NCBI GenBank assembly: GCA_951406725.2
Contig: OX597830.1
Span: forward strand, 1,426,001 to 1,490,000
DNA from: Octopus vulgaris
Taxonomy: Eukaryota
Direction: 5' to 3'
Length of the DNA: 64,000 nucleotides
Under the pieces are notes generated by a model. It had not been told where the DNA came from. It ran no database searches and worked only from the letters and a program-made list of their open reading frames with translations. This document shows positions 20,796-57,389 of the stretch, in pieces (positions within the stretch are counted from its first letter, which is position 1; the number at the start of each line of letters is the position of its first letter). Both the position numbers and the translations under genes were made by a program.

Positions 20796-20926
20796 CACAT
20801 ATATATATATACATATATATATACACATATATATACACATATATATATATATACACATATATATATATACATATATATATATACACATATATATATATAC
20901 ATATATATATATACACATATATATAT

Positions 20927-21053
<127 letters not shown>

Positions 21054-21093
21054 TATGTATATACATATATATACATATATATATATATTTATA

Positions 21094-23634: not shown

Positions 23635-23920
23635 TATATACATATATATATACATATATATATATATATACATATACATATACATATATATACATATATA
23701 TACATATATATATACATAAACATATACATACATATACATATATATACATATATATATATATACATATACATATACATAAACATATATATACATATACATA
23801 TATATATACATAAACATATATATACATATACATATATATATATATACATATACATATATATATATACATATATATACATATATATATATATACATATATA
23901 TATATACACATATATATACA

Positions 23921-23953
<33 letters not shown>

Positions 23954-24025
23954 CCACATAAACATATATATACATATACATACATATACATATACATACA
24001 TATACATACATATACATACCGATAC

Positions 24026-24058
<33 letters not shown>

Positions 24059-24137
24059 CATACATATATATATACATATATATACATATATACATATATA
24101 TATACATATATATACATATATATACATATATATATAC

Positions 24138-24179
<42 letters not shown>

Positions 24180-24222
24180 CATATATATATACATATATAC
24201 ATATATATATACATATATATAC

Positions 24223-24302
<80 letters not shown>

Positions 24303-24550
24303 TATACATATATATACATATATATACATATATATATATACATATATATATATACATATATATATACATATATATATATATACATATATATACATATATG
24401 CATATATATATACATATATATACATATATATATATACATATATATACATATACATATATATACATATATATACATATATATATATACATACATATATATA
24501 CACATATATACATATATATACATATATATATATACATACATATATATACA

Positions 24551-24584
<34 letters not shown>

Positions 24585-24648
24585 CATATATATACATATA
24601 TATATATACATATATATATATACATATATATATACATATATATACATA

Positions 24649-24983
24649 TAAAGACCCCCTTCGGTCATGAGTGACCATGGGTTTGCACCCAGAGAGTTAC
24701 CCTCTGAGGCACAGGTCTGGGCAAGGTTGTTTTTATGGAAGACCAATAGTCGCCCATGCATACCGGCCTCCCCTCTCCACGCCACCAGTGTTATCCAAGG
24801 GAAAGACAAAGGTCGATACAGCTTGGCACCAGTGACGTCGCAACTCATTTCTACAGCTGAGTGAACTGGACCAACGTGAAATAAAGTGCTTTGCTCAAGG
24901 ACAAAACACGCAGCCCGGTCCGGGATTCGAATTCACAACCTCACGATCGTAAGCTCGACGCACTAACCACTGAGCCATGCGCC
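24649..24983 (-). mobile_element. tRNA-derived CORE-type SINE, near full length
   Basis: Minus strand: GGCGCATGGCTCAGTGGTTAG (A box)...GAATTCGAATCCCGG (B box)...TGTCCTTGAGCAAAGCACTTTATTTCAC (CORE-like). Inserted in a TA tract. Confidence 0.88.
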
Positions 24984-25080
24984 TATATATATACATATAC
25001 ATATATACATATACATATATATATATATATATACATATATATATACATATATATATACATATACATATATATATACATAT

Positions 25081-25768
25081 ACTCTTTTACTCTTTTAATT
25101 GTTTCAGCCATCCGGCTGAGGCCATGCTGGGGCACCGCCCTTGTTGCTACCCTCTCTAAGTCCAGTTTGCCGTGGCTGGCCACTGATCTAAGAGAGAGTT
25201 TGTAGCTGCTGCCCTTAGGTTACCTTCGTACCTTGCAGTGGGTTCATCTGGGATCCCGGAAAGCAGCTTGTCTAGATGTTTTTTGAAAATGTCCACATCC
25301 GCATCATGTAGATCTCTTAGTTTTCTTGGCAGTTTGTTGAAAAGCTGAGGGCCCCTGAACCCCAGGCTATTACAGTATCTGCTCCTTACCCTGGATGTGG
25401 AAGACGGGACCTTTGGCACCACACAGTGACGTCCTGTACGGGGATTGGAACAGCTCTCAATTCCAAAATTTGGTGCTAGTCCCTCCAGGATTTTCCATAT
25501 ATATATCACTGCATATCTCACTCGTCTTCGTTCCGAGGAGTACAAATTGAGTTCCCTAAGCCTCTCCCAATAGTTCTTTTCTTTCATGGTGGAAATCCTC
25601 TTGGTGAAATGTCTTTGGATTGTCTCAAGCTCTGTGGTTAGTTTGACACTATGCGGTGACCACAGTTGGGAGCAGTAGTCCAGGCGGCTTAGGACAAATG
25701 TCCTCCATAGTGTCAACATGGTCTCGCAGTCTCTTGTCCGGAATGTCCTCAGGATCCAGCCAGTGAGT
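25081..25768 (-). mobile_element. CR1/L2-group LINE copy C (related subfamily, TAAAAGAG tail)
   Basis: [10 protein letters not shown]...[10 protein letters not shown]...[14 protein letters not shown]...RAAATNSL. Confidence 0.93.
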
Positions 25769-26490
25769 ATGTATACATACATATATATATACATATACAT
25801 ATATATATACATATACATATACATATATATATACATACACATATATACATATACATATATACATATATATATATATACATATATATATACATATACATAT
25901 ACATATATATATACATATACATATATACATATATACATATAAATATATATATACATATATATATACATATATATACATATATATATACATATATATATAC
26001 ATATATATGTATACATATATATATACATACATATATATATACATACATATATATATAATTACATATATATATATATACATATATATATATACATACATAT
26101 ATCTATATACATATATATATATACATATATATATATATACATATATATACATATATATATATACATACATACATATATACATATATACATATACATACAT
26201 ACATATATATATACATATATACATATATATATACATATATACATATATATACATATATACATATATATATACATATATACATATATATACATATATACAT
26301 ATATACATATATATACATATATACATATATATACATATGTACATATATATACATATATATATACATATATACATATATATACATATATATATATATACAT
26401 ATATATATACATATATATACATATATATATACATATACATATATACATATATATATACATATATATTTATATATACATATATATATACAT

Positions 26491-26521
<31 letters not shown>

Positions 26522-26556
26522 TTTATATATACATATATATATATATACATATATAC

Positions 26557-26587
<31 letters not shown>

Positions 26588-26953
26588 CATACATACATAT
26601 ATACATACATACATACATATATACATACATACATAAATATATATATACATACATACATATATATATATATACATACATACATACATATATATACATACAT
26701 ACATACATATATATACATACATACATATATATATATACATACATATATATATATACATACATACATATATATATATACATACATACATATATATATATAC
26801 ATACATACATATATATATATACATACATACATATATATACATACATACATACATATATATACATACATACATACATATATATACATACATACATACATAT
26901 ATATATATATACATACATATATATATATACATACATATATATATACATACATA

Positions 26954-26985
<32 letters not shown>

Positions 26986-27011
26986 CATATATATATATAC
27001 ATACATACATA

Positions 27012-27043
<32 letters not shown>

Positions 27044-27427
27044 CATATATATATATACATACATACTTATATATACATACATACATACATATATATACAT
27101 ACATACATATATATACATACATACATACATATATATACATACATACATACATATATATACATACATACATACATATATATACATACATACATATATATAC
27201 ATACATACATACATACATATATATACATACATACATATATTCATATATATACATACATACATACATATATATACATACATACATACATTTATATACATAC
27301 ATACATATATATACATACATACATACATATATATACATACATACATACATATATATATATACGTACATACATATATATACATACATACATACATATATAT
27401 ATACATATATATATATATACACATATA

Positions 27428-27456
<29 letters not shown>

Positions 27457-27458
<2 letters not shown>

Positions 27459-29326
27459 GGCACACTCACAGGAAAACCAATGAGGGTAAGTGAAATACTG
27501 AATGAACAATTCAAGAGTGTTTTCACTCCACCCCTTGGGCATTTACAAATCAGCAATCCAACTGACTTCTTTACCACTGCAGATATAGAATCAGAGGCGG
27601 CGACGATAAATTACATCGATATAAAGGAAGACGATGTAATAAAGGCTATAGATGAAATGAAAACAGACTCAGCTATTGGCCCCGATGGATTCCCGGCAAT
27701 CCTCCTAAAAGTATGTAAGAGAGTCTTAGCAAGACCACTGCAGTTCCTCTTTCAGAGCTTCCTTGCAGCTGGCAAACTTCCAAGAAAACTGAAGGAAGGT
27801 AACATATTCACTATTCATAAAGGAGGTAGCAGAGCGGAGGCCAAGAACTACAGACCTATCTCTCTGACCTCACACATCAGCAAGGTCATGGAACGAATAC
27901 TCAGAAGGAAACTAATCACCTTCCTTGAAGAAAATGACTTGCTGCCTAACACCCAACATGGTTTCCGACAAGGAAGAAGCTGCTTAACTCAGCTCCTGCA
28001 GCACTATGACTGGGTGCTGAAACAACTGCTCAACCACTCAAAAGTGGAAGTCATATATCTCGACTTCGCAAAGGCCTTCGATAAAGTCGATCATGGAATG
28101 ATATGTCACAAACTGCGTGATCTTGGCATAGTTGGAAAACTAGGAGAATGGCTTCACGACTTTCTGAAGAATAGAAGTCAGGTGGTAGTAGCCAATGGGG
28201 CCACTTCCATTAGCACGCAAATAGTGAGCGGTGTTCCACAGGGCACTATTTTGGGACCACTAATGTTTATGATGGCCCTCTCAGACATGCCCTCAGCCAC
28301 GCGGAGAGCCACGATCACAAGTTATGCAGATGATACAAAAGTTTCACAGGCAATACAGAACACTGAAGACACTAAGCACCTGCAATATGAGCTGGACGAA
28401 ATTTACAAGTGGGCTGAGAAGAATAGCATGCAGTTCAATGCTGAAAAGTTTCAAGCTTTATACTATCAGCATGCAAAACTGAATGCAATAACCAAGGAAT
28501 ACATTGGACCCGGAGGGATTGCAATCCCAGAGGCACAATCAGTGCGGGACCTGGGTATTCACATGAGTGATGACGCGACCTTTCATGTACATGTTGCTAA
28601 ACTGACAATGAAATGCAGACGGCTGGCTGGATGGATTCTTAGAACCTTTAGAACAAGAGAACTAGAAACCATGATGGTCCTCTGGAAGACACTTCTCCTA
28701 AGCCACTTTGACTATTGCTCTCAGCTATGGTCACCATCCAGTGTCAAGTTGATCACAGAACTTGAGGCGATCCAACGAAGCTACACGAAGAAGATATCCT
28801 CTATGCAGAATGTAAGCTACTGGGAAAGTCTCAAGAGATTAAAATTATATTCCCTGGAGCGTAGGCGGGAAAGATATGCCATAATATACATCTGGAAGAT
28901 CCTGGAGGGAAGTGTCCTGAACTTTGGCATCGAGAGTAACGCAAATGCTAGAACTGGGCGCCACTGCGTGGTGCCTAGGACTCCAAACTTGCCATCAAGA
29001 TGTAGGACAAGATTCTGTAATAGCCTGGGCTTCCGAGGCCCACAGCTCTTCAATATCCTCCCGAAGAACCTGAGAGACCTGCATGGGGTGGATACAGATG
29101 TCTTTAAAATGGAGCTGGATCTCTTCCTGTCAGGTGTCCCAGATGAACCAACTTCACGGCAGGAGGGGCAGATGAGGGCAGCTGCATCGAACTCACTCAT
29201 ACACCAAATAGCAGTTGCTAGAAAACCTCCATGAAGTGAAACCAAGAAGCAAAACCAAATGGCGGTGCCCCAGCATGGCCACAGCTCATAAGCTGAAACG
29301 AGAATCAATCAATCAATCAATCAATC

Positions 29327-29327
<1 letters not shown>
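27457..29327 (+). mobile_element. CR1/L2-group LINE copy D (5'-truncated, (AATC)n tail)
   Basis: Very similar to copies B and F; flanked by TA tracts. Confidence 0.97.
27480..29234 (+). CDS. LINE ORF2 reverse transcriptase (584-aa open portion)
   Basis: All RT motifs including YADD; uninterrupted to the natural stop. Confidence 0.92.
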
Positions 29328-29377
<50 letters not shown>

Positions 29378-29422
29378 CATATATATATATACATATATAT
29401 ATATATACATATATATATATAC

Positions 29423-29485
<63 letters not shown>

Positions 29486-29497
29486 TATACATATACA

Positions 29498-29529
<32 letters not shown>

Positions 29530-29530
29530 C

Positions 29531-29641
<111 letters not shown>

Positions 29642-29770
29642 CATATATATATATACATATATATATATATACATAAATATATATATACATATATATATAT
29701 ATACATATATATTTATATATACATACATATATATATATACACATATATATATATACATATATATTTATAT

Positions 29771-29817
<47 letters not shown>

Positions 29818-29837
29818 TGTAGGTCCCGGTTATACAC

Positions 29838-29960
<123 letters not shown>

Positions 29961-30012
29961 CATATATGACTATACATATACATATATATATATACATATA
30001 TATATATACATA

Positions 30013-31349
30013 TTACAACACTATGACTAGGTGCTGAAACGGCTGCTCAACCACTCAAATGTGGAAGTGATATATCTCGACTTTGCAAAGGCCTTTGATA
30101 AAGTCGATCATGGAATGATATGTCACAAACTGCGTGATCTCAACATGGTTGGAAAACTGGGAGAATGTCTTCATGACTTTCTGAAGGATAGAAGTCAGGT
30201 GGTAGTATCCAATGGGGCCACTTCCATTAACACACAAATAGTGAGCGGTGTTCCGCAGGGCACTGTTCTCGGTCCACTACTGTTCATAATGGCCCTCTCA
30301 GACATGCCCTCAGCCACGCAGAGAGCCACGAACACAAGTTATGCAGATGATACAAAAGTTTCAAAGGCAATACAGAACCCTGAGGACACTAAACACCTGC
30401 AATGTGAGCTGGACAAAATATACAAGTGGGCTGAGAAGAATAGCATGCAGTTCAATGCTGGAAAGTTTCAAGCTTTATACTATCAGCATGCAAAACTGAA
30501 TGCAATACTCAATGAATACACTGGACCCGGAGGGATTGCAATTCCAGAGGCACAATCACTGCGTGACCTGGGTATTCACATGAGTGATGACGCGACCTTT
30601 CATGTACATGTTGCTAAACTGACAATGAAATGTAGACGGCTGGCTGGATGGATTCTTAGAACCTTTAGAACAAGAGAACAAGAAACCATGATGGTCCTCT
30701 GGAAGAGACTTGTCCTAGGCCACTTTGACTATTGCTCTCAGCTATGGTCACCATCCAGTGTCAAGCTGATCACAGAACTTGAGGTGATCCAACGAAGCTA
30801 CACGAAGAAGATAGCCTCTGTGCAGCATATGCGCTACTGGGAGAGACTCAAGAGATTAAAGCTCTATTCCTTGGAGCGTAGGCGGGAAAGATATGCCATA
30901 ATATACATCTGGAAGATCCTGGAAGGTCTTGTCCCAGACTTTGGCATCGAGAGTCACACAAATGCCAGAACCGGACGCCACTGCGTAGTACCAAGGACTC
31001 CAAATTTGCCATCAAGATGTAGGACAAGATATTGTGATAGCCTGGGCTTCAGAGGCCCACGGCTCTTCAATATCCTCCCGAAGAACCTGAGGGACCTGCA
31101 TGGTGTGGATGCGGATGTCTTTAAAGTAGGACTGGATCTCTTCCTGTCAGGTATCCCGGATGAACCAACTTCACGGCAGGAGGTGCAGATGAGAGCAGCT
31201 GCATCGAACTCTCTCATGCACCAGATGGCGTTTGCCAACAAACGTCCGTGAGGTAAAACCGTGTAGCAAACCAAATGGCGGTGCCCCAGCATGGCCACAG
31301 CTCATTAGCTGAAACTGGAAAAATCAAAATCAAATCAAAATCAAAATCA
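30013..31349 (+). mobile_element. CR1/L2-group LINE copy E (RT 3' half, AAAATC tail)
   Basis: ORF 30031-31251 with DFAKAFD, GVPQG and YADD. Confidence 0.95.
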
Positions 31350-31440
31350 TATATATATATACATATATATATATACATATATATATATACATATATATAT
31401 ACATATATATATATATATATTTACACATATATATATATAC

Positions 31441-31486
<46 letters not shown>

Positions 31487-31490
31487 GTAC

Positions 31491-31523
<33 letters not shown>

Positions 31524-31524
31524 C

Positions 31525-31555
<31 letters not shown>

Positions 31556-31940
31556 CATATAATAATAAAAGGGTGAAATTAATTAATTAGGGATAATTAT
31601 CAATTACACCAAGTAGATTTCGGTATGTAAAAGCCCCATTCGAGGAAAATTTAAGTAATACTAAGTAATTAAGGGTTTAGCAACGAATTGCCTCACCAAC
31701 ACACCGAATTTAGAAATAGCAGTCAAAGAGATATAGCTCTTCCTTCTACTAAAAGGGGGATCTCAGCAAAAACACAGCACTTAAAAGGCAAACACAGACA
31801 GGTAAGAAAGAAAGAATGAAATGACGGCAATCTTTGAATTTCGTGGTACTGGTCATGCTTTGGCTCGCTCTGATACTGAGTTGAGATGACGCATTCTAGT
31901 ATCTCAAAATTTAATATACAATTATTCACAATTGTAGTAT

Positions 31941-32032
31941 CCTGCGCCGATGAGAGAAGAAGTCTGGGTAAAGTAGAATTTTCTAATTCTTATGATATCC
32001 TAAAACTTGATCTCGAAACGTACGTCTGTAGG
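31941..32032 (+). ncRNA. Type I hammerhead ribozyme motif (copy 1, U4C core)
   Basis: CCTGCG CCGATGA GAGA-[53 nt]-TCTC GAAA CGTACG TC TGTAGG. Predicted cleavage after 32026. Confidence 0.8.
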
Positions 32033-32529
32033 TAACTTAAAATTGCATGATGGATTGCCGTCATTTCATTCTTTCTTTCTTACCTGTCTGTGTTTGCCTT
32101 TTAAGTGCTGTGTTTTTGCTGAGATCCCCCTTTTAGTAGAAGTAATAGCTATATCTCTTTGACTGCTATTTCTAAATTCGGTGTGTTGGTGAGGCAATTC
32201 GTTGCTAAACCCTTAATTACTTAGTATTACTTAAATTTTCCTCGAATGGGGCTTTTACATACCGAAATCTACTTGGTGTAATTGATAATTATCCCTAATT
32301 AATTAATTTCACCCTTTTATTATTACTGATAACCATATTTTATCCCAGTAAATGACCACAGCATTTTGTCTTGGCTACACGCGGGTGGAAGGGGGCTGGT
32401 GACACAAACTTTCATTCAATCTTTGAATTTCGTGGTACTGGTCATGCTTTGGCTCGCTCTGACACTGAGTTGAGATGACGCATTCTAGTATCTCAAAATT
32501 TAATATACAATTATTCACAATTGTAGTAT

Positions 32530-32621
32530 CCTGCGCCGATGAGAGAAGAAGTCTGGGTAAAGTAGAATATTCTAATTCTTATGATATCCTAAAACTAGAT
32601 CTCGAAACGTACGTCCGTAGG
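32530..32621 (+). ncRNA. Type I hammerhead ribozyme motif (copy 2, U4C core)
   Basis: Same as copy 1, with stem I CCTGCG/CGTAGG fully paired. Predicted cleavage after 32615. Confidence 0.82.
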
Positions 32622-32912
32622 TAACTTAAAATTGCATGATGGATTGCCGTCATTTCATTCTTTCTTTCTTACCTGTCTGTGTTTGCCTTTTAAGTGCTGT
32701 GTTTTTGCTGAGATCCCCCTTTTAGTAGAAGGAATAGCTATATCTCTTTGACTGCTATTTCTAAATTTGGTGTGTTGGTGAGGCAATTCGTTGCTAAACC
32801 CTTAATTACTTAGTATATATACATATATGTAGGTCCCGGGTTGATTCGGGGTTAACCACAGTAAATAAGGTACTCAATACATAGCAGAGTAAAATTAATT
32901 TATTATATAGAA

Positions 32913-32966
32913 GGAGCTTCTACAGGACTAGAACTGTTTCATTCGAGAGAAATCATCAGGGCTGCA
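32913..32966 (-). ncRNA. Hammerhead-like motif, stem I partly disrupted
   Basis: Minus strand: gcagcc CTGATGA tTTC-tctc-GAAt GAAA CAG-ttctagtc-CTG TA gaagct. Confidence 0.55.
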
Positions 32967-33669
32967 TAAAATCGACGAAATAACTTGGCAAATCACTCAC
33001 AAAACGTAGAAATTGTTACTTTATAGACGTGTACCTGGATATTTGCTTAGAAGCCGCAATATATTTCTGCCACAAGTCAAGTATTGACACAAGGATCTCT
33101 TCCTGTCGAAACGCACGTGGAGTCTTCTAAATTTATTTCCAGTCGATAAGTACCCTAATTCCTGTTTATATCTCCGCAAAAAACGTATCACAAATTCTTG
33201 TTTTACTGTTAATTTCGTTATATCTATTATCTATAAATTACCTGTTAAACTCTGTAAAATCTCTTGGCTTGTTTTCTTTCAGCTGTTTTATTATTATTAT
33301 TTATCATTATTATTATTCTATTTTATTATCTATTATTATTATCACTTGTTAAATATATGTGTGTGTATATATGTGTATGTGTTATATATATATATGTGTG
33401 TGTGTATATACTATATATATATAAACTCTGTAAAATCTCCTGGCCTGTTTTCTTTCAGCTGTTTTATTTTTATTTTTATTTTTATTTTTATTATTATTTT
33501 ATAATTACTTACTATTATTACTTTTGTTTATATATGTTTTATTATTATTTTTGTTTCTTTATATACTCACTTGTTACTCTTGTCTATATATGTACATGTG
33601 CACACGTGTATGCACGTGTGTATGTGTGTGTGTGTATACATGTGTATGTCCCAATAGCTTCGTTTAGAA

Positions 33670-34298
33670 TTCTGTCTGTCTCTTCAGTTCTCTCCCTTAC
33701 CCTTCTCTGTCTGTCTCTTCAGTTCTCTCCCTTACGCTTCTCTGTCTGTCTCTTCAGTTCTCTCCCTTACGCCCCTCCTTGGCCCAAGAGCTTCTTTTAG
33801 AATTCTGTCTGTCTCTTCAGATCTCTCCATTACGCTTCTCTGTCTGTCTCTTCGGTTCTCTCCCTTGCGCTTCTCTGTCTGTCTCTTCGGTTCTCTCCCT
33901 TACGCCTCTCCTTGTCGATTCTACCTTACTCTCCTCTCTCAGCTCTCAATCTCTCTCTGAGGGCATAGACGCTTTCTCTATCTTCCTTCAGCACTCAGTC
34001 TCTCCTCTTCCTCTTCTCTCTTGCTCTCTTCTCTTGGCTCCCAATCTCTCCTTAAGTACATGGACGCTCTCTATTGCACTATTGGATTAATATAACTTAA
34101 TATAATTAGATAGATAGATAGATAGATAGATAAAATATCTCTCCTCTTCCTCTTCTCTCTTGCTCTCTTCTCTTGGCTCCCAATCTCTCCTTAAGTACAT
34201 AGACGCTCTCTTTCTCTATTACCCCCTACCCCCCTATTGCACTATTGGATTAATATAACTTAATATAATTAGATAGACAGATAGATAGATAAAATATC
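33670..34298 (+). repeat. LINE 5'UTR tandem repeats (about 33-bp CT-rich units; 140-160-bp duplication ending in (GATA)n)
   Basis: CTGTCTGTCTCTTCAGTTCTCTCCCTTACGCTTCT about six times; 34000-34139 duplicated at 34140-34298. Confidence 0.85.
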
Positions 34299-34302
34299 AA
34301 GA

Positions 34303-35155
34303 ATGTCCAGAGCCTGGAAATGTGATGAACTGGCGTGGTTCCTGCGAGGATGGCAATGCGCTGACGGAGAAAGTCCAAGTAACATAATTGCGGCAGCACT
34401 AAGGAACAAAGGATTCAAAAGGACGTCAGCACAAATAGAGCGGAGGAGGCAAGAGTTCGTACGCTCATACGCACTTGTCAGATCGCACATAAACACACTG
34501 GATGCCATTTTTAACAGCGAAAAACGCGAACAAAGTAAAGATGGCAAGGATGGAGACGCGGGCGCAGATGAGGAGGGTCACCCCCACCTGGTGGACGCCC
34601 AGGAAGAAAACTCCAGCGAGAGGCGTGCCCGGGAGGTGAACCCAGGTACGGATGCTCCTACCGGCACCAAAAGCCATGGACATGGAGATGAAGAAGCCAA
34701 AAAAAAGAGGAAAAACTGAAGCAAAAACTCAGACAAAGCCAAGGGGCAAGGCAGCCAGGGATAGAGGCAAACCTAACTATACATATGCCAAAAAGGATGG
34801 AAACAAGCAGCGCACACGGGTATGTAGGTTCTACCTGAAAGGTGCCTGCCGGCATGGAGAGGAAGGTGCAGGCTGCCGCTTTGCACATCCGGGACCCTGC
34901 CACAGAAACCAACCACCGAAAGGAAATGGGATGGACCACGCATCACTTGCCCCAAAACGGAGGTACGCAGATGTGGTGCGTACCACAAACCACCAACGTG
35001 TTGTTGAAAGGGCAGCTGCTGAGCAGGAATCTTTTTTGTGCATGGCACAAAAAAGCAGATGGAACTGCCCACGGTTCACAAGACCGCCAAGGCAGATGGA
35101 CCCAGGGTGGACACCGCCGGCAACAGCATACACCTCACCTCGATGCTCCTACTGA
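34303..35155 (+). pseudogene. LINE ORF1 (split into two frames) with a CCCH zinc finger
   Basis: ORFs 34303-34719 and 34652-35155; CRFYLKGACRHGEEGAGCRFAH is C-x7-C-x8-C-x3-H. Confidence 0.75.
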
Positions 35156-37877
35156 ACATCAGAGGACTACTAACACACAGTAACAGGACAAAAGTCCCGT
35201 TCCTGAGAGACTTTGTCGCAAGCAATCAAGCCTTATGCATAGCACTCACAGAAACGCATGTGAAACCGGACATAGCAGATGCGGAATTACACATACCACA
35301 GTATGTTGTACTACGGACCGACAGGAAAGAAAGGAGTCATGGAGGAGTTGCCATGTACATCCGTGGGGACCTCACACCCCAGGTCCTTTTGTCATACTCA
35401 AACTCGGTGTGTGACACACTAATTGTACACATAAGGCAACTTGATATAGTTGTGTGTGCTACATATCGCCCTCCAGATGCCCCAAGTCATATGGGCAAGT
35501 TTGAGGACTGCCTTTTAAAAATAGAAGAAGTTCTAACCACATTAGAACAACACATAAGTGTACTTCTCATGGGAGACTTCAATCTACCGAATGTCAGATG
35601 GCCCGAGGGCCTTTCTCTCCCAGGAATGACAAGATGTGAACGAGGACAGGCGAGGTCCCTCCTGAACCTCACCAACACATTGTACATGGAGCAAGTAATA
35701 CTCCAACCAACCAGAGCAGGTAACACACTGGATCTCTGCTTCACAAATAATATGGATCTCATCCATAATGTGAAAGTGACACCGACACTACTCTCGGATC
35801 ACAACATGGTAGAGCTGACCATGTACGGGCCAAAAGAGAGCACGGACATGCAGCCTACAAGAAACCCTCAGAATCTTTCCAGCTTGAACTTCAATAAGGC
35901 AAACTGGAAACAAATTGAGAAAGAGATCCTCAAACAAAACTGGCCTGAATGTCTCTCCTCGCCGGACATCGACATGATACTTCAACAATTCATGTCTGTA
36001 ATGCAAGCCATATGCTACAAATGTGTCCCAGAGAGAAAGGCCACTGTACACAAGAACAAAATCCCCAGAGAGAGGAAAATTTTAATGAGACGGCGTACAA
36101 AAATTTCAAATTTCCTAAACAAACAAATTGAAAGCAGTGAAAAGTCCCGCCTGAAAATAAAACTGTTGGAAATTGAAAATTGTCTGCAACTCTCCCATGA
36201 GAAGGAAAGAGCAGACAAAGAAGCCTGGGCTATAGACAACATAAAAACTAACCCCAGAGCTTTCTACAGGTATGCCAAAGTAACAGCTACGGTGCACTGT
36301 AGGATAGGGCCACTCCTTGAAAAGGATGGCACACTCACAGGAAAACCAATGAGGGTAAGTGAAATACTGAATGAACAATTCAAGAGTGTTTTCACTCCAC
36401 CCCTTGGGCATTTCCAAATCAGCAATCCAACTGACTTCTTTACCACTGCAGATATAGAATCAGAGGCGGCGACGATAAATTACATCGATATAAAGGAAGA
36501 CGATGTAATAAAGGCTATAGATGAAATGAAAACAGACTCAGCTATTGGCCCCGATGGATTCCCGGCAATCCTCCTAAAAGTATGTAAGAGAGTATTAGCA
36601 AGACCACTGCAGTTCCTCTTTCAGAGCTTCCTTGCAGCTGGCAAACTTCCAAGAAAACTGAAGGAAGGTAAAATATGCCCTATTCATAAAGGAGGTAGCA
36701 GAGCGGAGGCCAAGAACTACAGACCTATCTCTCTGACCTAACACATCAGCAAGATCATGGAACGAATAGTCAGAAGGAAACTAATCACCTTCCTTGAAGA
36801 AAATGACTTGCTGCCTAACACCCAACATGGTTTCCGACCAGGAAGAAGCTGCTTAACTCAGCTCCTGCAGCACTATGACTGGGTGCTGAAACTACTGCTC
36901 AACCACTCAAATGTGGAAGTCATATATCTCGACTTCGCAAAGGCCTTCGATAAAGTCGATCATGGAATGATATGTCACAAACTGCGTGATCTTGGCATAG
37001 TTGGAAAACTAGGAGAATGGCTTCACGACTTTCAGAAGAATAGAAGTCAGGTGGTAGTAGCCAATGGGGCCACTTCCATTAGTACGCAAATAGTGAGCGG
37101 TGTTCCACAGGGCACTGTTTTGGGACCACTACTGTTCATAATGGCCCTCTCAGACATGCCCTCAGCCACGCGGAGAGCCACGATCACAAGTTATGCAGAT
37201 GATACAACAGTTTCACAGGCAATACAGAACCCTGAAGACACTAGGCACCTGCAATATGAGCTGTACGAAATATACAAGTGGGCTGAAAAGAATAGCATGC
37301 AGTTCAATGCTGAAAAGTTTCAAGCTTTATACTATCAGCATGCAAAACTGAATGCAATACCCAAGGAATACACTGGACCCGGAGGGATTGCAATCCCAGA
37401 GGCACAATCAGTGCGTGACCTCTATGCAGAATGTAGATAGCCTTTATGCAGAATGTAAGCTACTGGGAAAGACTCAAGAGATTAAAATTATATTCCCTGG
37501 AGCGTAGGCGGGAAAGATATGCCATAATATACATCTGGAAGATCCTGGAGGGAAGTGTCCTGAACTTTAGCATCGAGAGTTACGCAAATGCCAGAACTGG
37601 GCGCCACTGCGTGGTGCCTAGGACTCCAAACTTGCCATCAAGATGTAGGACAAGATTCTGTGATAGCCTGGGCTTCCGAGGCCCACAGCTCTTCAATATC
37701 CTCTCGAAGAACCTGAGAGACCTGCATGCGGTGGATACAGATGTCTTTAAAATGGAGCTGGATCTCTTCCTGTCAGGTGTCCCAGATGAACCAACTTCAC
37801 GGCAGGAGGGGCAGATGAGGGCAGCTGCATCGAACTCTCTCATGCACCAAATAGCAGTTGCTAGAAAGCCTCCATGA
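35143..37877 (+). pseudogene. LINE ORF2 (APE endonuclease + RT), disrupted
   Basis: LLNIRGL, LTETH, DR..GGVAMYI, YRPP, GDFNLP, TLDL, SDHN. RT motifs in 36757-37440; C-terminus in 37446-37877. Confidence 0.95.
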
Positions 37878-38376
37878 AGTGAAACCAAGTAGCAACACCA
37901 AATGGCGGTGCCCCAGCATGGCCACAGCTCATAAGCTGAAACTAGAATCAATCAATCAATCAATCAATATATATATATATACATATATATACATATACAT
38001 ATATATACATATACATATATATATATACATATATATATATACATATATATATATACATATATATATATACATATATATATATACATATATATATATACAT
38101 ATATATATATATACATATATACATATATATATATACATATATATATATATACACATATATATACATATATATATATATACATATATATATATACATATAT
38201 ATATACACATATATATATACATATATATATACATATATATATACATATATATATACATATATATATACATATATATATATACATATATATATACACATAT
38301 ATATATACATATATATATACATATATATATACATATATATATATATACATATATATATATACATATATATATATAC

Positions 38377-39033: not shown

Positions 39034-39098
39034 TGATTGATTGATTGATTGATTCTAGTTTCAGCTTATGAGCTGTGGCCATGCTGGGGCACCGCCAT
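39034..39098 (-). mobile_element. CR1/L2-group LINE copy G (65-bp extreme 3' end)
   Basis: (GATT)n followed by CTAGTTTCAGCTTATGAGCTGTGGCCATGCTGGGGCACCGCCAT, within a TA tract. Confidence 0.9.
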
Positions 39099-39444
39099 AT
39101 ATATACATATATATTCATATGTATATACATATATATATATATACATATATATTCATATGTATATACATATATATATATACATATATACATATATACATAT
39201 ATATATACATATATATATATACATATATATATATACATATATATATATACATATATATATATACATATATATATACCTATATATATATACATATATATAT
39301 ACATATATATATATACATATATATATATACATATATATATATACATATATATATATACATATATACATATATATATATACATATATATATATACATATAT
39401 ATATACATATATATATATACATATATATATACACATATATATAC

Positions 39445-39475
<31 letters not shown>

Positions 39476-39530
39476 CATATATATATATATACATACATAT
39501 ATATATATATACATACATATATATACTTAC

Positions 39531-39561
<31 letters not shown>

Positions 39562-39636
39562 CATACATATTCATATATATATACATATATATTCATATAT
39601 ATATACATATACATATATACATATGTATATATTCAT

Positions 39637-40306
39637 ATATCAACAATTGAGGGTAAAATTAATTAATTAATCAATTTCACCAAGTGTTCAGTATGTAAAA
39701 GGACCATTTAAGGCGAATTCAAAATATTACATTATATAAATAGGGCTTAGTAAAATAAATTACTTTTCCACATACTGAACTTAGTAGAAATAGCAGCCAA
39801 AGAAAATTTTTGTTAGCATTTCTACTACTCAAAGAAAATTTCTCTCAGATAATGTTTACTCCAAACAGCTCACGAAGGTTTGGGGGTAAATACAGAAAAA
39901 TATCACAAGTACATAGATCGTTTGTGTACGTCAACGTTTCAAGATTAGCCAAAGAAAATCAGCATTTCTTTCGTCAGCTCAAAATTTCTTAATTTGGATT
40001 TGGAAACACTAAAATGAAGGAACTTTACCTATCAGCGTACTTGTCGCTTCAGATGAACAACTCCAACTAAACAGAGTCAACAAATTCAAAATGCGCAGGC
40101 GTAAAATTCTGCACTCCCCATTCCACCCACGTGGTCTATCTGGCAAACATTATATTTTAACCGTGAGAACCGAGGCAGTATGACCCAGAGAAATGAATTA
40201 TAATATCAACAATTGAGGGTAAAATTAATTAATTAATCAATTTCACCAAGTGTTCAGTATGTAAAAGGACCATTTAAGGCGAATTCAAAATATTACATTA
40301 TATAAA
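39637..40306 (-). mobile_element. Non-coding retrozyme-type element, 566-bp unit with about 104-bp terminal direct repeat
   Basis: 39637-39740 repeats at 40203-40306. Shares homologous blocks with the 589-bp element and contains a hammerhead motif. Confidence 0.8.
39921..39983 (-). ncRNA. Type I hammerhead ribozyme motif (canonical core)
   Basis: Minus strand: TTTGAG CTGACGA AAGA-[22 nt]-TCTT GAAA CG-TTGA-CG TA CACAAA. Stem I is 5/6 paired. Confidence 0.78.
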
Positions 40307-40456
40307 ATTATACATTCATATATATATATACATATGTATATATACATATATATTCATATATATATACATATATATATATATACATATATATACATATATA
40401 TACATTTACATACATATATATACATATATATACATTTACATACATATATATACACA

Positions 40457-41513
40457 TAAATCCTTAAATCCTTAAAAATGTTTTCAGCCCGAAGGCCGCG
40501 GCCATGCTAGGGCACCACCGCTGAATGAGCTACACTAGTTTGTGAATCCACCTCTGATACGTGGCACTTGATCAACAAAGGAGTTCGATGCTGCTGCCCG
40601 CATCCGTGTCTCCTGACGTGAGGTAGGTTCATCTGGGACTCCCAACAAGAAGAGATCCAGTTTAGTTTTAAAGAAACCCACATCCACACCATGTAAGTCT
40701 CTCAGGCATTTAGGGAGGATGTTAAAGAGCTGTGGTCCTCTGAAACCCAAGCTGTTGCAGTATCTGGACCTGTATTTTGATGGTGATGTTGGAATCCTTG
40801 GCACCACGCAGCGGCGCCTCGTTCTGCGGTTGGAGTAACTTTGAATGCCAAAGTTTGGGACAAGACCCTCCAGGATTTTCCAGATGTATATCACTGCATA
40901 TCTCTCCCGCCTCCGCTCCAGGGAGAAGAGGTTTAATACCTTCAGTCTTTCCCAGTAGCTGACATTTTGCATTGAGACGATTTTCTTTGTGTAGCTTCTC
41001 TGAGTTGCTTCGAGTTCTGCTGTTTGTTTTATATTGTGTGGTGACCAGAGTTGGGAGCAGCAGTCCAAGCGGCTGAGGACAAATGTTTTCCATAGGACCA
41101 TCAGTGTCTCCTTCTCTCTTGTTCTGAAAGTTCGGAGAATCCATCCAGCTAGCCGTCTGCATTTTATCACCAGATTAGCAATATGCATTTGGAAAGATGC
41201 ATCATTGCTCATGTCAATGCCCAGGTCACGCACTGATTTTGACTCAGGGATTGCAATTCTTCCTGGGCCAGTGTATCCAGTCTTCACGTCATTTACCTTT
41301 GTGTGCCAGTAGCGCAGGGCCTGGAACTTACCTGCATTAAACTGCATGTTGTTGTCCTCAGCCCACTTGTATATTGTGTCCAGCTCATGTTGCAGATGCG
41401 CAATATTTTCAGGGTTTTGTATTGCGTGGGAGACTTTTGTGTCATCTGCATAGCTAGCAAGGGTGGTCATCGTAGCAACTGAAGGCATGTCTGAAAGGGC
41501 CACTATGAACATC
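40457..41513 (-). mobile_element. CR1/L2-group LINE copy H (another subfamily, TTTAAGGA tail)
   Basis: [14 protein letters not shown]...[14 protein letters not shown]...RAAASNS. Confidence 0.94.
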
Positions 41514-50040: not shown

Positions 50041-51326
50041 CCAATGTACTTCAAAGTAAAATTCAAATCATTTCTTTGTTTATATTACCTGTAAGCTAAT
50101 ACGTGAAATATTTGTATTCTACCATCTTTATATCCTTAATTTCCAATTAACTCGGTTGCAAAATGAGCTTAACAAACATCACACACTAATATCATTAAAT
50201 ACTTCGTAATTTTGTCGTACAGAGTTCGACACCTTTCATGTAGAGTTCAAATGTAAATTAATGGCAGTGCCCTTAATTTGGGTTATATGATCCTTATATA
50301 TCAGGTTACTCCAGGCCTCATTCAAGGACGTAGACAAAAGTAAACATTAAAAATCCTTTGCATAGGAAATATTCACGGAGTTCATGGTAATTTCGGTAAA
50401 CGTATGTGAAGACATGAAATACGTGAGCTCGTAATGGCAGATATATATGTTACTCCGCGCGCCTAATTACGGATCGTGGAATTAGAAATTAGCTAAAAAC
50501 GGCAGTTCTACAGATCTATTTGTTTCCTTCAGACACCAAGTAAAAATATTGGTTTTCAACGAAAAACTACGTCTGTTAAAGGGTAGCAATAACTCCAGTG
50601 TAAAATATGTAAGGATCTACAACACAAGCGGAAATGGAGAGGGAGAGGTTGAATATATATTTTTCTTTCCTTCCTCAATTGGCAAATGTATAAACAAGAA
50701 AATCGTGTTGGCTTATATAAGATATTCACTGAAAGTATAAGATGAGATTCATGATTTTTTTCCTCTTCTAAGTGAAGTATTGCTATTAACATATACAGCA
50801 TCTGTTTCAATATTCAGATAAATATTTATATTTATACAACAACACTCAAAACGTCTGACTTTGAAGAAAAATAGATTACATTATACTTTCATTTTATTAT
50901 AGCAACGAACAATAAGCTTAGTGTATTCAGCCTCTATCATATGAAATATATGGCTGGAGACACTTTCGAGGGCAATTCTTTTTTAAGTAAGACAACGGTT
51001 GATCACAACTCCATTAATATTCAAACTTATTTTGATAACCGCTTTTATGACTTTCATAGAATAGAACAAGAAGAGCAGCGGACAGAACTCCTCGGTGGGA
51101 GGATGTTATACTCGCAATGAAGAGACCTGACTCGATTCTTGTGACAGAATCTGCTAAACATTGAGTGGGGTGGTAGGGGCTAAATAGAACCACAGTTAAA
51201 TATTTCAGGTTTCGGTATATGTATATAACTATTTCTAAGATCCTAAGGAATAATAACTATCCCAGGTTATCAGGACATTTGCTATTTTACACTTTACTAA
51301 CGCAATGTAAACAGTATCATTTATAA

Positions 51327-51989
51327 TATTACAAATTCGGGATTTTACCGATAGAACTGCAACTCCTATTTCAGGATAACCTTATTGTATGGAACACACA
51401 TAGAAAGTTATATCCAATAAATAGAAGCAATTAAAAAACCTACTATAAAATACAATATATTTGCAAAAATATTTGAAAAAAAAATCAATATCACTTACCT
51501 GTTATTAGTCTGTGGGAAAAGAAGATTTTTAAATCCACCCGTGCCTTCCCAGACTGTTTATCTTATTGTTATTATTATTAATGGATCAAGGTTTAAAATA
51601 CATATAAGTCATCTTGAATAGAAAAAGTAATATGAATAAAAATATAATAAAAATATATAAATTGCAAATATATCTTTGAAAATTAGAAAATTACACAAAT
51701 TAATTTTTTTTAATTTAAAAAATTAAACACCTGAAATTACAACACCGATTATATAACGAAAATGCTAAACCTAAGGAAACCCTCAACGACTTTATTATAA
51801 ACACATCAAATCCTACAACCTATCTATATAAACATTACGGTAATTAATAATTTAGTGTAAGATTTACCCCTATCTATACAAGTATAAATTACCATTTTTT
51901 AAATAAGGAAGGATACTCCTCATTCCTGTGTAAATGGCTGCTCCTGAAATGGGAGTTGCGGTTCTATTTGTAAAATCCCAAATTTGTAA

Positions 51990-51991
<2 letters not shown>
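51327..51991. mobile_element. Non-autonomous DNA transposon with about 50-bp TIRs
   Basis: 51327-51376 (TATTACAAATTCGGGATTTTACCGATAGAACTGCAACTCCTATTTCAGGA) is the near reverse complement of 51942-51991. Confidence 0.8.
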
Positions 51992-52044
<53 letters not shown>

Positions 52045-52045
<1 letters not shown>

Positions 52046-53211
52046 GATAAGAAAATGGAGAAATACATCTAAATCAAATATCGATTACCAGATAATACTC
52101 AATCACATACTTTATTAAGCCACCACATAAGAGACTGTAGAGTTAAACATAAAAAAGCAGAACAAATCAGTGTACACAAAGGAATGTACATAAAAAAGTG
52201 TACATAAAAGAGTAATGTTGTATAATAAGTAAAATATATATAAAAAAGAGAATATAAATATAAGTAAATATAAATATAAGTATAGATTACTTCTTACAGC
52301 TGTTTCGACCTGTAGATAAGTATGTCTCATTTTACCAATATTAGCCTTTTATGGTAGGTCAATATATGGATATAAATGAGACATTTACAAAAGTATCATA
52401 AGGCCTCTTCGGAGATATACATATACATATGAGTGCATATACTCACACTCCTATAGATATAAAAATATACATATACATAATAATGTAAATAAATAATATA
52501 AATTAGTAAACATATATATGTTCCACACTCAATGTTTCAGTTTTTCAACTTAATATTGTGATAATAAACATACACATATTAGTACCTAGATGCAAATATA
52601 CATGGTCAATAGTACATTATATTACTTCCTACTAATTTCCAAAGTGTCATTAAAGTTAGCATCATTATCGTTGTCAATACCATTAATGCTACCATCATTA
52701 TCATTCATAATATTATTAATAACGCTTACATTAGGATCCAAAGTGGCACATATGTATGTCCGGGTTCCATTTAGTAATTTTCCTTATGACATAAATACAC
52801 TATTGGATTTGAATTTAAATTATCATTGCCTTCCTCATGGTTGGTCTGTTGAGAGCCGCCCCTACACCGCACAAGAAAAACATACACATCCACATCCAAC
52901 CCTAAACCCACACGTCCACATAAAGACCCACACACACATGCACACACATGAGTAAACCCCGACACATCGCTACACATTCACTAAGAAGTAATATATACTT
53001 ATATTCTCTTTTTTATATATATTCTACTTATTATACAACATTACTCTTTTATGTACACTTTTTTATGTACATTCCTTTGTGTACACTGATTTGTTCTGCT
53101 TTTTTATGTTTAACCCTACAGTCTCTTATGTGGTGTTTTAATAAAGTATGTGATTGAGTATTATCTGGTAATTGATATTTGATTTAGATGTATTTCTCCA
53201 TTTTCTTATCT
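52045..53211 (-). mobile_element. Penelope-like non-coding element with 230-250-bp inverted arms and a hammerhead motif
   Basis: 52045-52296 is inverted relative to 52982-53211; the ribozyme motif sits at the inner edge of the left arm. Confidence 0.78.
52292..52416 (-). ncRNA. Type I hammerhead ribozyme motif (U4C core, about 100-nt stem II domain)
   Basis: Minus strand: TCT CCGAAGA GGCCT...ATGTCTCATTT...AAATGAGACAT...AGGTC GAAA CAGCTG TA AGA. Palindromic stem III ACAGCTGT. Confidence 0.75.
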
Positions 53212-53975
53212 AGTATTAGTAATTTGTGGTAAATCATTTTACCTTTGCCCATATAATACAGTAAATGAATTGATTGCATCGCAATCCTTAACATTTATTA
53301 TTAACTTTGTTGGGTACTTCACTAGCAGTATGTTGGATATATGTTATCCCATGGAGGGTTGCATTTACAACCCCTATCTCAATTTGTATATATATAATTA
53401 TATATCTAAAGCATCGGTTATCGAACGACTTTATATACTATATCACCCCTGAAACATTTAAGCATATATAAAAAATAACCAATAATACCTGTACATAAAA
53501 TTACAGGTAAAAATAAAATAAATATCCACTGGCTAAAAAATTTTTATCAGACGATTAAAATATTCTTTTTTGATTAATTTTTTGTTTTTAAATATTTGAA
53601 AAAATATTCGAAAAAGCCTTTTACTTACCTTTTAGAAGTACGTCCAACGTTCATAAATAAACAGATTTCCACAGGTCAAATTCACATACATCTTGAAAAA
53701 ATGCCTTTTATCTACTCCATATTTCTTTATTATGATTATACAATCGTTACATAGAAGGACAAATACAGGACATACATGCAAAAAACAGTTAGGAGGTTCG
53801 ATTAAAAATTTTCCATAACATTTGGATTATTCATTATAAAAATTCGTCTGTAAATTGTCCTTTACATGACCAATAGAATATTATAACATTACATAAACTT
53901 TCGATCTTACCGAAGTTTTAAACCCCGGCAATTTATAAGGCCCCGCAGCTTTTGTTTCCTCTCCTCCCTCCATAG

Positions 53976-56900
53976 TTAATCTGGGTTTCTGACACCCACC
54001 TTTTTTTCCACTTCCTTCCATCTTTTCTCATACACACCCCGTGGTAAGATCCTCTTTTCCAGCCCCATTTTGCTCTTCAGATGATATCTGAAGTAAGTGA
54101 GCAAGCCGGGGCCCGAGACAAAGGATCCTATCGCGACTCCTTCCATTCTTGTACGCCACATGCATTCTTTTACTACTGCAACCGTGCAGTGAAAACATGC
54201 CTCACCTTCCTTCGAGAGTCCAGTTGGCGGTATCATCTTAATCATAGACTCAGCCGACAGCTGTACTCGTCCCAGATGCGATAACACGTGTTCTGCGTAA
54301 CTTATCAAGTCGGACAACTTCCGACAGTGTACGAAAGCGTGCTGGACGGTTTCATCGTCCAACTCGCACCTTGGACACGTCGGTGGCACTGAAATTCCGT
54401 GCCGCGATAACTTCTCGCGAACAGGTAAAGCATTCCTATAGCACTGCCAGGCCAGGGATCTTTGGAAATTATCCAAATACCCCGTCCTGAAAGTCTTTTT
54501 AAACAGGTTGGTAAGCTGGTCTTCGTCAAACCCCAGAGCCCCTCCTAGGACGTCGTCGTTCTTTGCCTCTACCAGCCTTCTATAAAATACCGAGGTGGTA
54601 TTTCCGCAGCCGGCCTTGCCCGCCTTGTGGATCAGCGTGAGTGCCTGTCGGCACTCCTTTTGCCATAAAGTCAGTTTCCATCTTTTGATGCGACCGGGTT
54701 TAAAATTCACTAAGGAGGCCGGTCGCGGGAAAAATTCCCCTGCCAGCGGACTCCACACCTTATCACCCTCTAGGTGGTGCCAGAGATGCTTCAGCCTCAA
54801 CGCATGTCTGCGCATCATCAACCAAGGCATTCCTAACCCACCCTTTAACGGTTCCTGGCAGCAAACGGAGCGCCTCACAAGTGGCTTTCCTCCCTTCCAC
54901 AAAAAGCGGAAAAGGATTCGCTCCAACTTGCTAAGCCATGAATCGGGGCAAGGGACAACGGTCAGGCGGTAAGTGATTACAGATGCAATGAACATCTGTA
55001 CCACCTCCACCCTTCCTTTCAAGGACAGAAACCTTCCGGACCAGGTCCGTACTATTGCCTCCACCTTGCTCGTCACCTCACTCCAGTTCCTCTCCGTTTG
55101 GGAGTCTGGCCCAAACCAAACTCCTAGCAACTTAACAGGGCCATCCGTCCAGTGTCCCACGACACTGGACGATATCGACTTGCTCCTCCAGGTGCCGAGG
55201 CGCAAGCCCACCGACTTGTCCTTGTTAACCTTTGCTCCTGCCACCGCCTCGTATCCTCTGATAGCCTGTTCCACACAAGGTAGCTGGGCCTCATTGGACA
55301 CGATGAGGGTGACGTCATCCGCATAAGCAGTAACCGTCCTCCCACCTCCGATCTCATCCGAGTTACTTCCCAGCCTCTCCAACTTTCGCAGCAATGGCTC
55401 AAGAGCCAACACGTACAAAAGTGGTGACAAGGGGCACCCTTGACGAACTGAACATTCGATCGAAAACGGTTCCGTTAGGTAACCGTTTATCTGGACGGTG
55501 GACTTGATGCCGCTATACATAGCGGAGATCCACCCGCGAAATTCAGGGCCCAGTCCAGCCGCTTCGAGGACCGTCGCCAGGTACTGATGGTCTACCCTAT
55601 CGAACGCTTTACTTTGGTCTAAATGGACCATTACCCCGCCCTTGCCGGTTAATTTACCCACCCTATCTAAGGTGTAGCGTATAAGGTGAAGATTGTCCTG
55701 GATCGACCTGCCTGGGATTGCACATGTCTGTGCTCTCCCTACAAGTTTCTCCACGACAACCGTCAACCTTTTTGCCAACACCTTGGCCAAAATCTTTAAC
55801 TCTACATTAAGTAGAGTTATGGGCCTGTAGTTACTAATGTTATCCCCCTTGCTCGGGTCTTTCTGGATTAGCGTCACCACTCCCCGGCTTACAGAACTGG
55901 GAATTCTCCCATTCTGCTGCCAGTTCCTGTAGACGCCTGCCAATATTCCCCCGAACAAGTCCGGCATACTTTGGTAAAACTCGTAGGGCAGACCATCCAA
56001 CCCCGGCGACTTCTCCCCGGCGCATCCGGCCAGTATCCCCTCTATCTCCGCGGGAGTGATCGCTTCTTCACAGCACTCCACCTCACGCCCCGAGAGCCGC
56101 GGTCCGCCGGCTAGGAAGTCCTTTAAGGTCCTCCCCGCTCCGGCGCCACACCACCCCCGAACACGCGGGCGAAATGCTGGTGAAGAAACTTTTGCATCTC
56201 CTCCTGTCCATAGATCTTTTGTCCCTGTTCGTCAGTTAAAGACTTGATTGAGGCTTTGTTACCTCTCTGACTCTCCACTCGACGGGCCCATCCGGCAACG
56301 TTAATACCTTCTCGTTTCCCAGCGCGTAGCTTAGCTCTGACTCTGCAACCTTCGTGTTTGGAGTTAAGGTGACGGTACAATACCGTCCTTGCCGCCATCA
56401 CTCCGGATGCAGAGCCAGCTTCCATTGCCTCGTTTAGATTCTTAACTAAATCGTCCTCTATCCTAGACCTATCTAACCTTAGCTGATTGCTAAATCTAAC
56501 GGACTCTGAACGAATGGCTCTTTTGAGGGAGTGCCACCATCTATTGTTAATGATGGTGTCACACAATGCCCTCTGTACTAACACCTTAATCCGGGTACGG
56601 AAGTCTTCACAATTCAAAATAGCCTTGTTCAGCTTCCAGTACCCGGGTCCCTGTCTATGACACTTGTCTAATTGCATCCTACACGTCACAAATTTGTGAT
56701 CCGTGTAAGGCACAATGTGAAACTGTGGACAACTAAACGTATCCTTATCTCTTTTCTTAATAAATATCCTATCTAAATACGATCTGTGTGAGCCGTCGTT
56801 GTTACTCCACGTCCACTGTGGAACGCTCGGCTCATCCAGTCGGTAACGGTCCACTAGATCAAAGCTCTCTAGTAGACCCTTGAGGCTAGGGTTCCCCTTC

Positions 56901-57363
56901 CTATTGGTTGAGCCAACACTGTCGACCCGCGCTTCAAGGACAGTGTTAAAGTCCCCTACTAAGACTACCGTTTTCGACGTCGCTAAAAAGGGCTCCAGGT
57001 TCCGAAAAAACCCGTCTGCCTACACTCATTCGGAGCGTAGACAGCTACCAACCTGAAGGACTGTTTACTTACGTGGGTCACATCCAGAACAACCAGCCTG
57101 CCTTCTGGGTCCAGAAAGACAGTACTTACCTGCAAGTCCAAGCTCTTCCTGATAAGGACTGCCACGCCTCTGCCTCTTCCTCGGCTAGGAGAAATAAATT
57201 TCTCGAACCCATTTAGAAGAGGCGAGAACGCTTGGGCCTCGTTCATCTTGGACTCGGTTGCAATAGCTATGTCCACTCCATGTGTCGTGAGGTCGTTCAG
57301 GAAACAAATTTGTTTCCATTTCGTCCCCATTCCACGTACATTCACACAACCCAGCTTAGCCAT
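53976..57363 (-). pseudogene. Tx1-type ORF2 (APE + RT + CCHC), at least two frameshifts
   Basis: CVNVRGM, ATESK, VYAPN, GDFN, WTW...SYLDRIF..TDHK; SPGLDGLPYEFY, LDQSKAFDRVDH, VRQGCPLSPLLY, YADD, CPRCELDDETVQHAFVHC. Confidence 0.93.
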
Positions 57364-57389
57364 TGTCGGTGAGAGAAAAATAAATGAAC

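Follow-up and report, generated by a model that had tools for sequence, protein, structure and literature searches.

A non-coding hammerhead repeat with Penelope-like ends in Octopus vulgaris, likely copied in trans

The 64,000-nucleotide stretch of Octopus vulgaris DNA analyzed here (GenBank assembly GCA_951406725.2, contig OX597830.1, positions 1,426,001 to 1,490,000; hereafter the window) is animal-type eukaryotic DNA of ~35% GC with long TA/CA microsatellites and many pieces of LINE reverse transcriptase. Positions 39637-40306 hold a 670-bp insert on the minus strand that amounts to 1.18 units of a 566-nt repeat and carries a single ribozyme motif. The unit itself (39637..40202, minus strand) is non-coding, with 34% GC and longest ATG-initiated reading frames of 14 aa in the sense and 46 aa in the antisense direction. 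It is preceded by a 5' partial copy resembling a pseudo-LTR (40203..40306, minus strand), which repeats the unit's last 104 nt exactly, so that 39637-39740 and 40203-40306 are identical at 104 of 104 positions with a period of 566. This bears out an earlier note, made from the same DNA, that described one unit with a 104-bp terminal redundancy. The insert is flanked by (TA/CA)n microsatellites, one at the 3' end of the element (39116..39631), presumably the target, and one at its 5' end (40317..40458), which hides any target-site duplication. There is no inverted copy at this locus, unlike at the locus of a sister family described below.

The surroundings hold several other repeats. A single LINE family accounts for densely nested 5'-truncated copies, 85-98% alike and in both orientations, at 20300-38000 and 39036-39098; most of them end in a TA/CA microsatellite or are inserted into one. 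A near-complete LINE lies at 53976-58535 on the minus strand, with a zinc-knuckle ORF1 and an endonuclease/RT/zf-RVT ORF2 in two frames. Terminal inverted repeats of 54 bp (89%; 51323-51376 and 51942-51995) surround an AT-rich 670-bp stretch in the manner of a MITE, beside (TA)n at 51996.

On the minus strand, the body of the 566-nt unit carries a type I hammerhead motif (39983-39921) whose core segments lie at 39977-39971 and 39940-39937; the GUA cut is predicted between 39927 and 39926. The core CUGANGA ... GAAA ... UH is complete and in type I order; stem I forms 5 of 6 pairs, stem II has 4 bp followed by an inner 5-bp helix, and stem III has 3 bp. None of 20,000 dinucleotide shuffles matched the hammerhead descriptor, which was composed post hoc with the motif already seen. 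The hammerhead had previously been called canonical, a description that suits the core and fits less well elsewhere: the Rfam hammerhead models did not match the 566-nt unit at the gathering score, nor when hits up to E<=10 were admitted (the sister unit was likewise unmatched), pair 10.1-11.1 is A-U here versus G-C in the sister family, stem II is extended, and stem I is mismatched. A G10.1-C11.1 closing pair is typical of canonical hammerheads without being absolute (PMC4209133). The hammerhead also differs from the minimum-energy fold (-4.5 versus -9.7 kcal/mol).

The stem I mismatch, an A.A opposition at position 39925 of the 39637-40306 copy, was compared with contigs of other copies taken from 4 of 24 listed runs; the 24 runs come from 9 studies, and 20 of them contain part of the stretch. 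In all four runs (9, 12, 8 and 4 contigs), the letter at 39925 is the one that completes the pair, at all covering depth. Because this letter restores stem I, the motif of the family is better than that of this copy, and the fold is supported. An alternative descriptor match with a cut at 39910 was dropped: it would form only with a long loop 3, and the cut at 39927 is the one that agrees with the letter at 39925. Helix III and loop 3 (39928..39937, minus strand) are self-complementary, and in a dimer they are predicted to pair as a helix of 10 bp, at -10.8 kcal/mol. On this model the ribozyme is predicted to be most effective as a dimer, and it may be weak in the solo, mismatched copy at 39637-40306. 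The contigs additionally reveal further, diverged subfamilies of the 566-nt unit (loose ends at 40014, 40078 and 40187; piece 31 of run X9 at 39934-40010), one of which has G for A at 10.1 and a shorter stem II.

The window contains a second, related family with a period of 589 nt and 36% GC, arranged around two end positions that we designate Y (outer) and X (inner). Its locus begins with an inverted, 5'-truncated copy of 273 bp (31560..31832, minus strand) that ends at Y with its tail kept and adjoins (TA)n. Across an inversion junction with 5 bp common to the inverted and direct copies, there follows a 5'-truncated direct copy (31828..32325, plus strand) with a hammerhead at 31941-32032 that ends at Y, and then a second direct copy (32326..32816, plus strand) with a hammerhead at 32530-32621 that ends at X, without the tail, by a short TA run. 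The partial tandem amounts to 400 bp. In both sister hammerheads the core has the U4C variant and stem II carries a long insertion; the U4C variant is reported to have reduced activity in vitro, yet to be sufficient in vivo (PMC3088659).

Alignment of the two units supports treating them as sister families, in line with the homology claimed before. BLAST aligns the 566-nt and 589-nt units at 70% over 188 columns (E 1.8e-12), and global alignment of the whole monomers yields 354 identities in 504 aligned columns with a score of 222, against a mean of 73 and a maximum of 113 in 300 shuffles (z=11). The signal lies only in the 3' part. None of 500 shuffles scored as high for the tail or for the segment from cut to tail, versus 33 of 500 for the pre-ribozyme segment and 172 of 500 for the ribozymes, neither of which is significant alone. 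All four blocks quoted in the earlier note occur in both elements; the interval it gave for them in the sister, 31570-31750, is the inverted arm, and the collinear homologue is 32156-32315. The blocks do have the same orientation relative to the ribozyme, as both ribozymes read away from the strand of the blocks. The GGGTRAAATT block, placed earlier at about 280-290 nt downstream, lies 276 nt from the predicted cut here and 288 nt from it in the sister, and the distance from cut to end is 290 nt in the 566-nt unit and 299 nt in the sister.

The ends of the two families coincide. Site Y at 39637/40203 is homologous to 32325/31560 of the sister, and site X at ~39729-39731 is homologous to 32816. 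Between the inner end X (~39731) and the outer end Y (39637 = 40203) lies an optional tail of ~94 nt (39637..39730, minus strand; 98 nt in the sister). The two outer ends of the sister locus are thus one Y and one X of the 566-nt element, placed head to head. Contigs matching the element number 2073, 1444, 1033 and 71 in the four runs, which carry three organism labels; these figures are not a copy count. Single matching pieces reach a depth of up to ~4,900, and the 566-nt family consists of many dispersed copies. In contigs of other copies, (TA)n loose ends occur before 40199 (15 contigs of run X3, 8 of run X4) and before 39731 (9 of run X3). Together with the two loci, this evidence comprises 3 of the 24 loose-end rows listed, out of 189 in all, and in run X1 none of the 6 rows listed has (TA)n at X or Y; the data accordingly speak for preferred ends and do not amount to a census. 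No contig among those listed bridges the Y junction with 31 letters on both sides, and no recurrence of the 40306 5' end was observed.

Fixed ends bear directly on how the element was copied. In a classical retrozyme circle, the hammerhead would free a monomer that is ligated and reverse transcribed from any starting point for more than one round, giving circularly permuted copies. Such a route would explain an insert that exceeds one unit with its ribozyme site intact, it suits the 61% of bases paired in circular folding, and animal retrozymes have been reported as circRNAs (PMC7229834). We nevertheless regard it as very unlikely, for ends coincide at X and Y both between the two diverged families and among other copies, neither an inverted head-to-head copy nor a one-sided tail is predicted by it, and the single ribozyme at the 566-nt locus makes release of a monomer by the locus itself impossible. 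A circle primed at fixed sites belongs instead to the reading that we favor. Random circular permutation is not supported; the earlier note had proposed checking other genomic copies for circular permutation. That note had also taken ends shared by all copies to speak against its template model; such ends are largely what we find, in two families and in contigs of other copies, with 'all copies' reaching beyond the rows listed, and they point to Penelope-type internal priming rather than arguing against reverse transcription.

For none of the 24 listed runs is an RNA source on record. Run X9, whose RNA nature is a guess, holds a 384-nt piece over the predicted cut and a 52-nt go-back joint (depth 5), both of which were excluded from the evidence. 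Joints from 40255 to 39690 arise from the locus's own terminal repeat.

A passenger of the SINE type, copied by the LINEs of the window and trimmed at its 5' end by the hammerhead, appears most improbable. LINE reverse transcriptases are abundant in the window and a 63-bp LINE 3' end lies close by at 39036-39098; against this, the element has no poly(A) and no 3' sequence in common with any LINE in the window, its ribozyme sits in mid-unit, and it is PLEs that are marked by two alternative 3' ends and a copy inverted head to head.

The 104-bp repeat itself might have arisen at the level of DNA, by a second copy landing in an older tail-only copy, recombinational collapse of a tandem array, slippage that duplicated the end, or an artefact of assembly or polishing. 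The family would still be PLE-like under such an origin, and the redundancy would then be uninformative on the template. Tail-region sequence is indeed far commoner than the body: summed contig depth over the tail is 16x, 18x, 62x and 22x higher than over 40013-40183 in the four runs, where summed depth is not copy number. This excess fits 5' truncation, further sister families with the same module, or both. The repeats are also identical, while the body of this copy differs from most contigs at ~13 of 462 sites, which under decay after insertion has P ~0.003; and a recent preprint favors local tandem amplification of PLE ends (10.64898/2026.07.22.740005). At the divergence between the sister's repeats (8/673), however, zero differences in 104 nt has P=0.29, and a young insertion from a diverged source would fit the identity, as would homogenisation in assembly. 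Moreover, diverged relatives run past Y into sequence like the start of the unit (loose ends before 40187, 4 of 4 runs), which makes the head-to-tail junction a feature of the family. A DNA-level origin is on balance unlikely, if less so than the two preceding alternatives.

Judged from the alignments, the part conserved in both families is a 3' module, for which three structural features are predicted. A terminal hairpin (39652..39681, minus strand), common to the sister family, lies just inside end Y. A long-range stem (39686..39780, minus strand), in which 39780-39766 pairs with 39700-39686, encloses two small hairpins and an unpaired AU-rich stretch that holds X, and is predicted in the sister as well. 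Upstream of these, a further hairpin (39782..39827, minus strand) completes the module. All 36 of 36 pairs of the consensus fold hold in both families, five of them with both sides changed; 12 of 500 shuffles reach this result and slid partners give 0-1, where the covariation is that of two sequences, which also supplied the structure. Other copies were less favorable to the fold. Among the 40 variant rows listed, of 80 in all and taken from unphased contigs, 7 alternative letters fall where the 3' fold of this copy is paired, and 1 of the 7 keeps the pair when considered alone; the variants at 39784 and 39825 would pair together if on one molecule, and the contigs give no phase. The idea that letters private to this copy damage its 3' fold was rejected on the same counts, with 1 of 7 keeping the pair and 4 of 11 rows unpaired. 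Given this variant check and the two-sequence basis, the 3' fold is predicted and not established. We tentatively suggest, at somewhat less than even probability, that this structured module of 170-190 nt, which is conserved where the hammerheads have diverged, and not the ribozyme, is the landing and start signal of a Penelope protein for a radiation of ORF-less families, with two starts separated by ~95 nt, the one within the long-range helix and the other past it.

No ATG-initiated frame in either the 566-nt or the 589-nt unit exceeds 49 aa, and hence neither encodes RT with GIY-YIG; from this, we infer copying in trans. A search for the corresponding helper found no autonomous element with the same 3' module within the 64-kb window, and Pfam, applied to 22 plus 48 ORFs of the window (the 48 chosen from 103 short ORFs), reported no domain of a PLE. 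A short-motif search of the supplementary consensus file of PMC8557442 gave no convincing match among the passages listed, in which wrapped lines may hide words. Scans for exact motifs found 0 loci in each of the viral, metagenome and prokaryote collections, a result of little bearing on an animal repeat. A search of published papers found no description of the family nor of any tail near 95 nt; the 566-nt family may already be entered in a repeat library such as Repbase or Dfam.

The window does contain a decayed remnant of a PLE-type GIY-YIG endonuclease on the minus strand, in at least three pieces (~58520-58680, 59833-60030 and 60200-60300) broken by later insertions. It starts beside (TA)n at 60380-60427, is interrupted by a two-copy repeat, and then runs directly against LINE ORF1. 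The core piece is similar to GIY-YIG clusters (score 0.94), in which 40-53% of members carry the family, and it has 13 relatives at E<=0.001. In several of these a linker rich in cysteine precedes the motif; the Pfam scores of the relatives fall below the cut-off, and two further pieces of the remnant match the same relatives. We take the linker to suggest a Neptune or Nematis type (compare PMC8557442). Since the remnant has no DNA similarity to the 566-nt or 589-nt units, it speaks only for the past presence of such elements in the genome. A repeat at 59375-59801 consists of two tandem copies (89%) of a ~220-bp sequence that is presumably SINE-like. A third PLE-like insert, at 52038-53218, is bounded by a 225-bp inverted repeat (52038-52262 and 52994-53218, 96%) adjoining (TA)n; on its minus strand, a motif resembling a hammerhead (52418-52289) has a U4C core, a ~100-nt stem II region and a self-complementary loop 3, and would cut at a predicted distance of 257 nt from the 3' end. 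This insert has no similarity to the 566/589 families.

The best reading of the 566-nt element is a non-autonomous PLE derivative, that is to say, an animal non-LTR retrozyme. It is a protein-free, many-copy hammerhead repeat with PLE ends, which has probably been copied into (TA)n by a borrowed Penelope-type RT-endonuclease that is predicted to start from X or Y. The activities that this requires are on record for a PLE protein: in vitro, it cuts nicks into both strands of AT-rich DNA and initiates reverse transcription internally on the RNA, at two sites between which the genomic tail lies. Its template can be uncleaved RNA, such that ribozyme cleavage is unnecessary (PMC11167929). The insertion pattern of PLEs, with a partial tandem, an inverted 5'-truncated copy and a one-sided tail, is described in PMC8557442 and PMC3846280. 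A cycle of this kind would begin with read-through transcription of a head-to-tail locus, after which the helper protein would bind the structured module of ~170-190 nt and nick AT-rich DNA. Synthesis of cDNA would then begin at Y, retaining the tail, or at X, losing it. Here, cDNA begun at Y would have crossed the hammerhead site and continued 104 nt into the next unit, before an AT-rich stretch at its 5' end was joined to the target. That end stops ~10 nt past X, and microhomology with the target is the likely cause. At the sister locus, Y and X ends would have come to lie head to head as from priming on both nicked strands.

The template deserves separate consideration. A ribozyme-cut linear monomer copied from Y would yield just 290 nt, versus an insert of 670 bp that crosses the predicted cut and continues 104 nt further, which suggests a more-than-unit template such as an uncut multimer, a religated circle or a template jump. 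The proposal in the earlier note of a circular or multimeric template is retained to this extent, without free random permutation. If the template was intact at the hammerhead site, an uncut multimer and a religated circle have about even odds.

PLEs have been proposed as the movers of animal retrozymes, and the mechanism is not demonstrated in the parts of the literature examined; the portion consulted of Li, Clavereau & Pollet 2026, who derive non-LTR retrozymes from PLE pseudo-LTRs in 31 vertebrates and 4 invertebrates, leaves mobilisation open (10.64898/2026.07.22.740005). With two diverged, ORF-less hammerhead families that bear PLE-specific footprints, a small module on which two ends are mapped becomes a candidate for recognition. 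This makes the question testable by one in vitro priming assay and allows the role of the ribozyme to be separated from that of the 3' module. Should the module prove to be the start signal, the ends would provide direct footprint evidence for trans copying of animal retrozymes by PLE internal initiation, and the module would constitute a compact, portable template signal. The class is already known, and for now the families make a good example rather than a new system.

Comparison with known systems places the element accordingly. Like the animal non-LTR retrozymes (PMC7229834 and 10.64898/2026.07.22.740005), it has a unit that is non-coding, low in GC and repeated head to tail, includes one type I hammerhead and occurs in many copies; the proposed PLE origin and PLE helper are likewise in common. 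The 566-nt unit falls within the 51-972 bp range of Li et al. (10.64898/2026.07.22.740005) but above the 150-450 bp of Cervera (PMC7229834). Under the two-ribozyme definition of an 'active' element given in the former, the 566-nt locus has one motif and the sister locus two. Ends fixed at two sites, as found in the 566/589 families, do not appear in the portions of the retrozyme descriptions examined.

The hammerhead of the 566-nt unit can be compared with type I hammerheads of the dimer type, as described in PMC4209133 and PMC3088659. It resembles these in the full core, the 6-bp stem I, the 4-bp proximal stem II, and a short stem III with a self-complementary loop that would give a 10-bp dimer helix. 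In contrast, it has A-U at 10.1-11.1, an enlarged stem II and no Rfam score, and in the sister family the core is of the U4C type and the loop region of stem II measures 54 nt. The non-autonomous Chlamys elements, MRC1 among them, are likewise ORF-less PLE derivatives with pseudo-LTRs and head-to-tail insertions, but they are green-algal, mostly lack hammerheads, and have 3' similarity to autonomous families (PMC8557442).

Traits of non-autonomous PLEs present at both loci are a pseudo-LTR partial tandem (104 bp here, 400 bp in the sister), an optional tail, and insertion at AT-rich or (TA)n sequence. Agreement with EN+ PLEs extends to partial tandems, an inverted 5'-truncated copy, a one-sided tail, (TA)n targets, a hammerhead near the end and a 3' excess (PMC8557442, PMC3846280 and PMC11167929); the 566/589 units differ from EN+ PLEs in having no RT or GIY-YIG ORF. 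They differ also from the anole PLE, which has an AC-rich stem-loop whereas X lies here in an AU-rich predicted loop (PMC11167929). The kind of element is thus already known, and what is new here is the conserved 3' module and a tail of ~95 nt (94-98), ~3x the published 30-40 bp.
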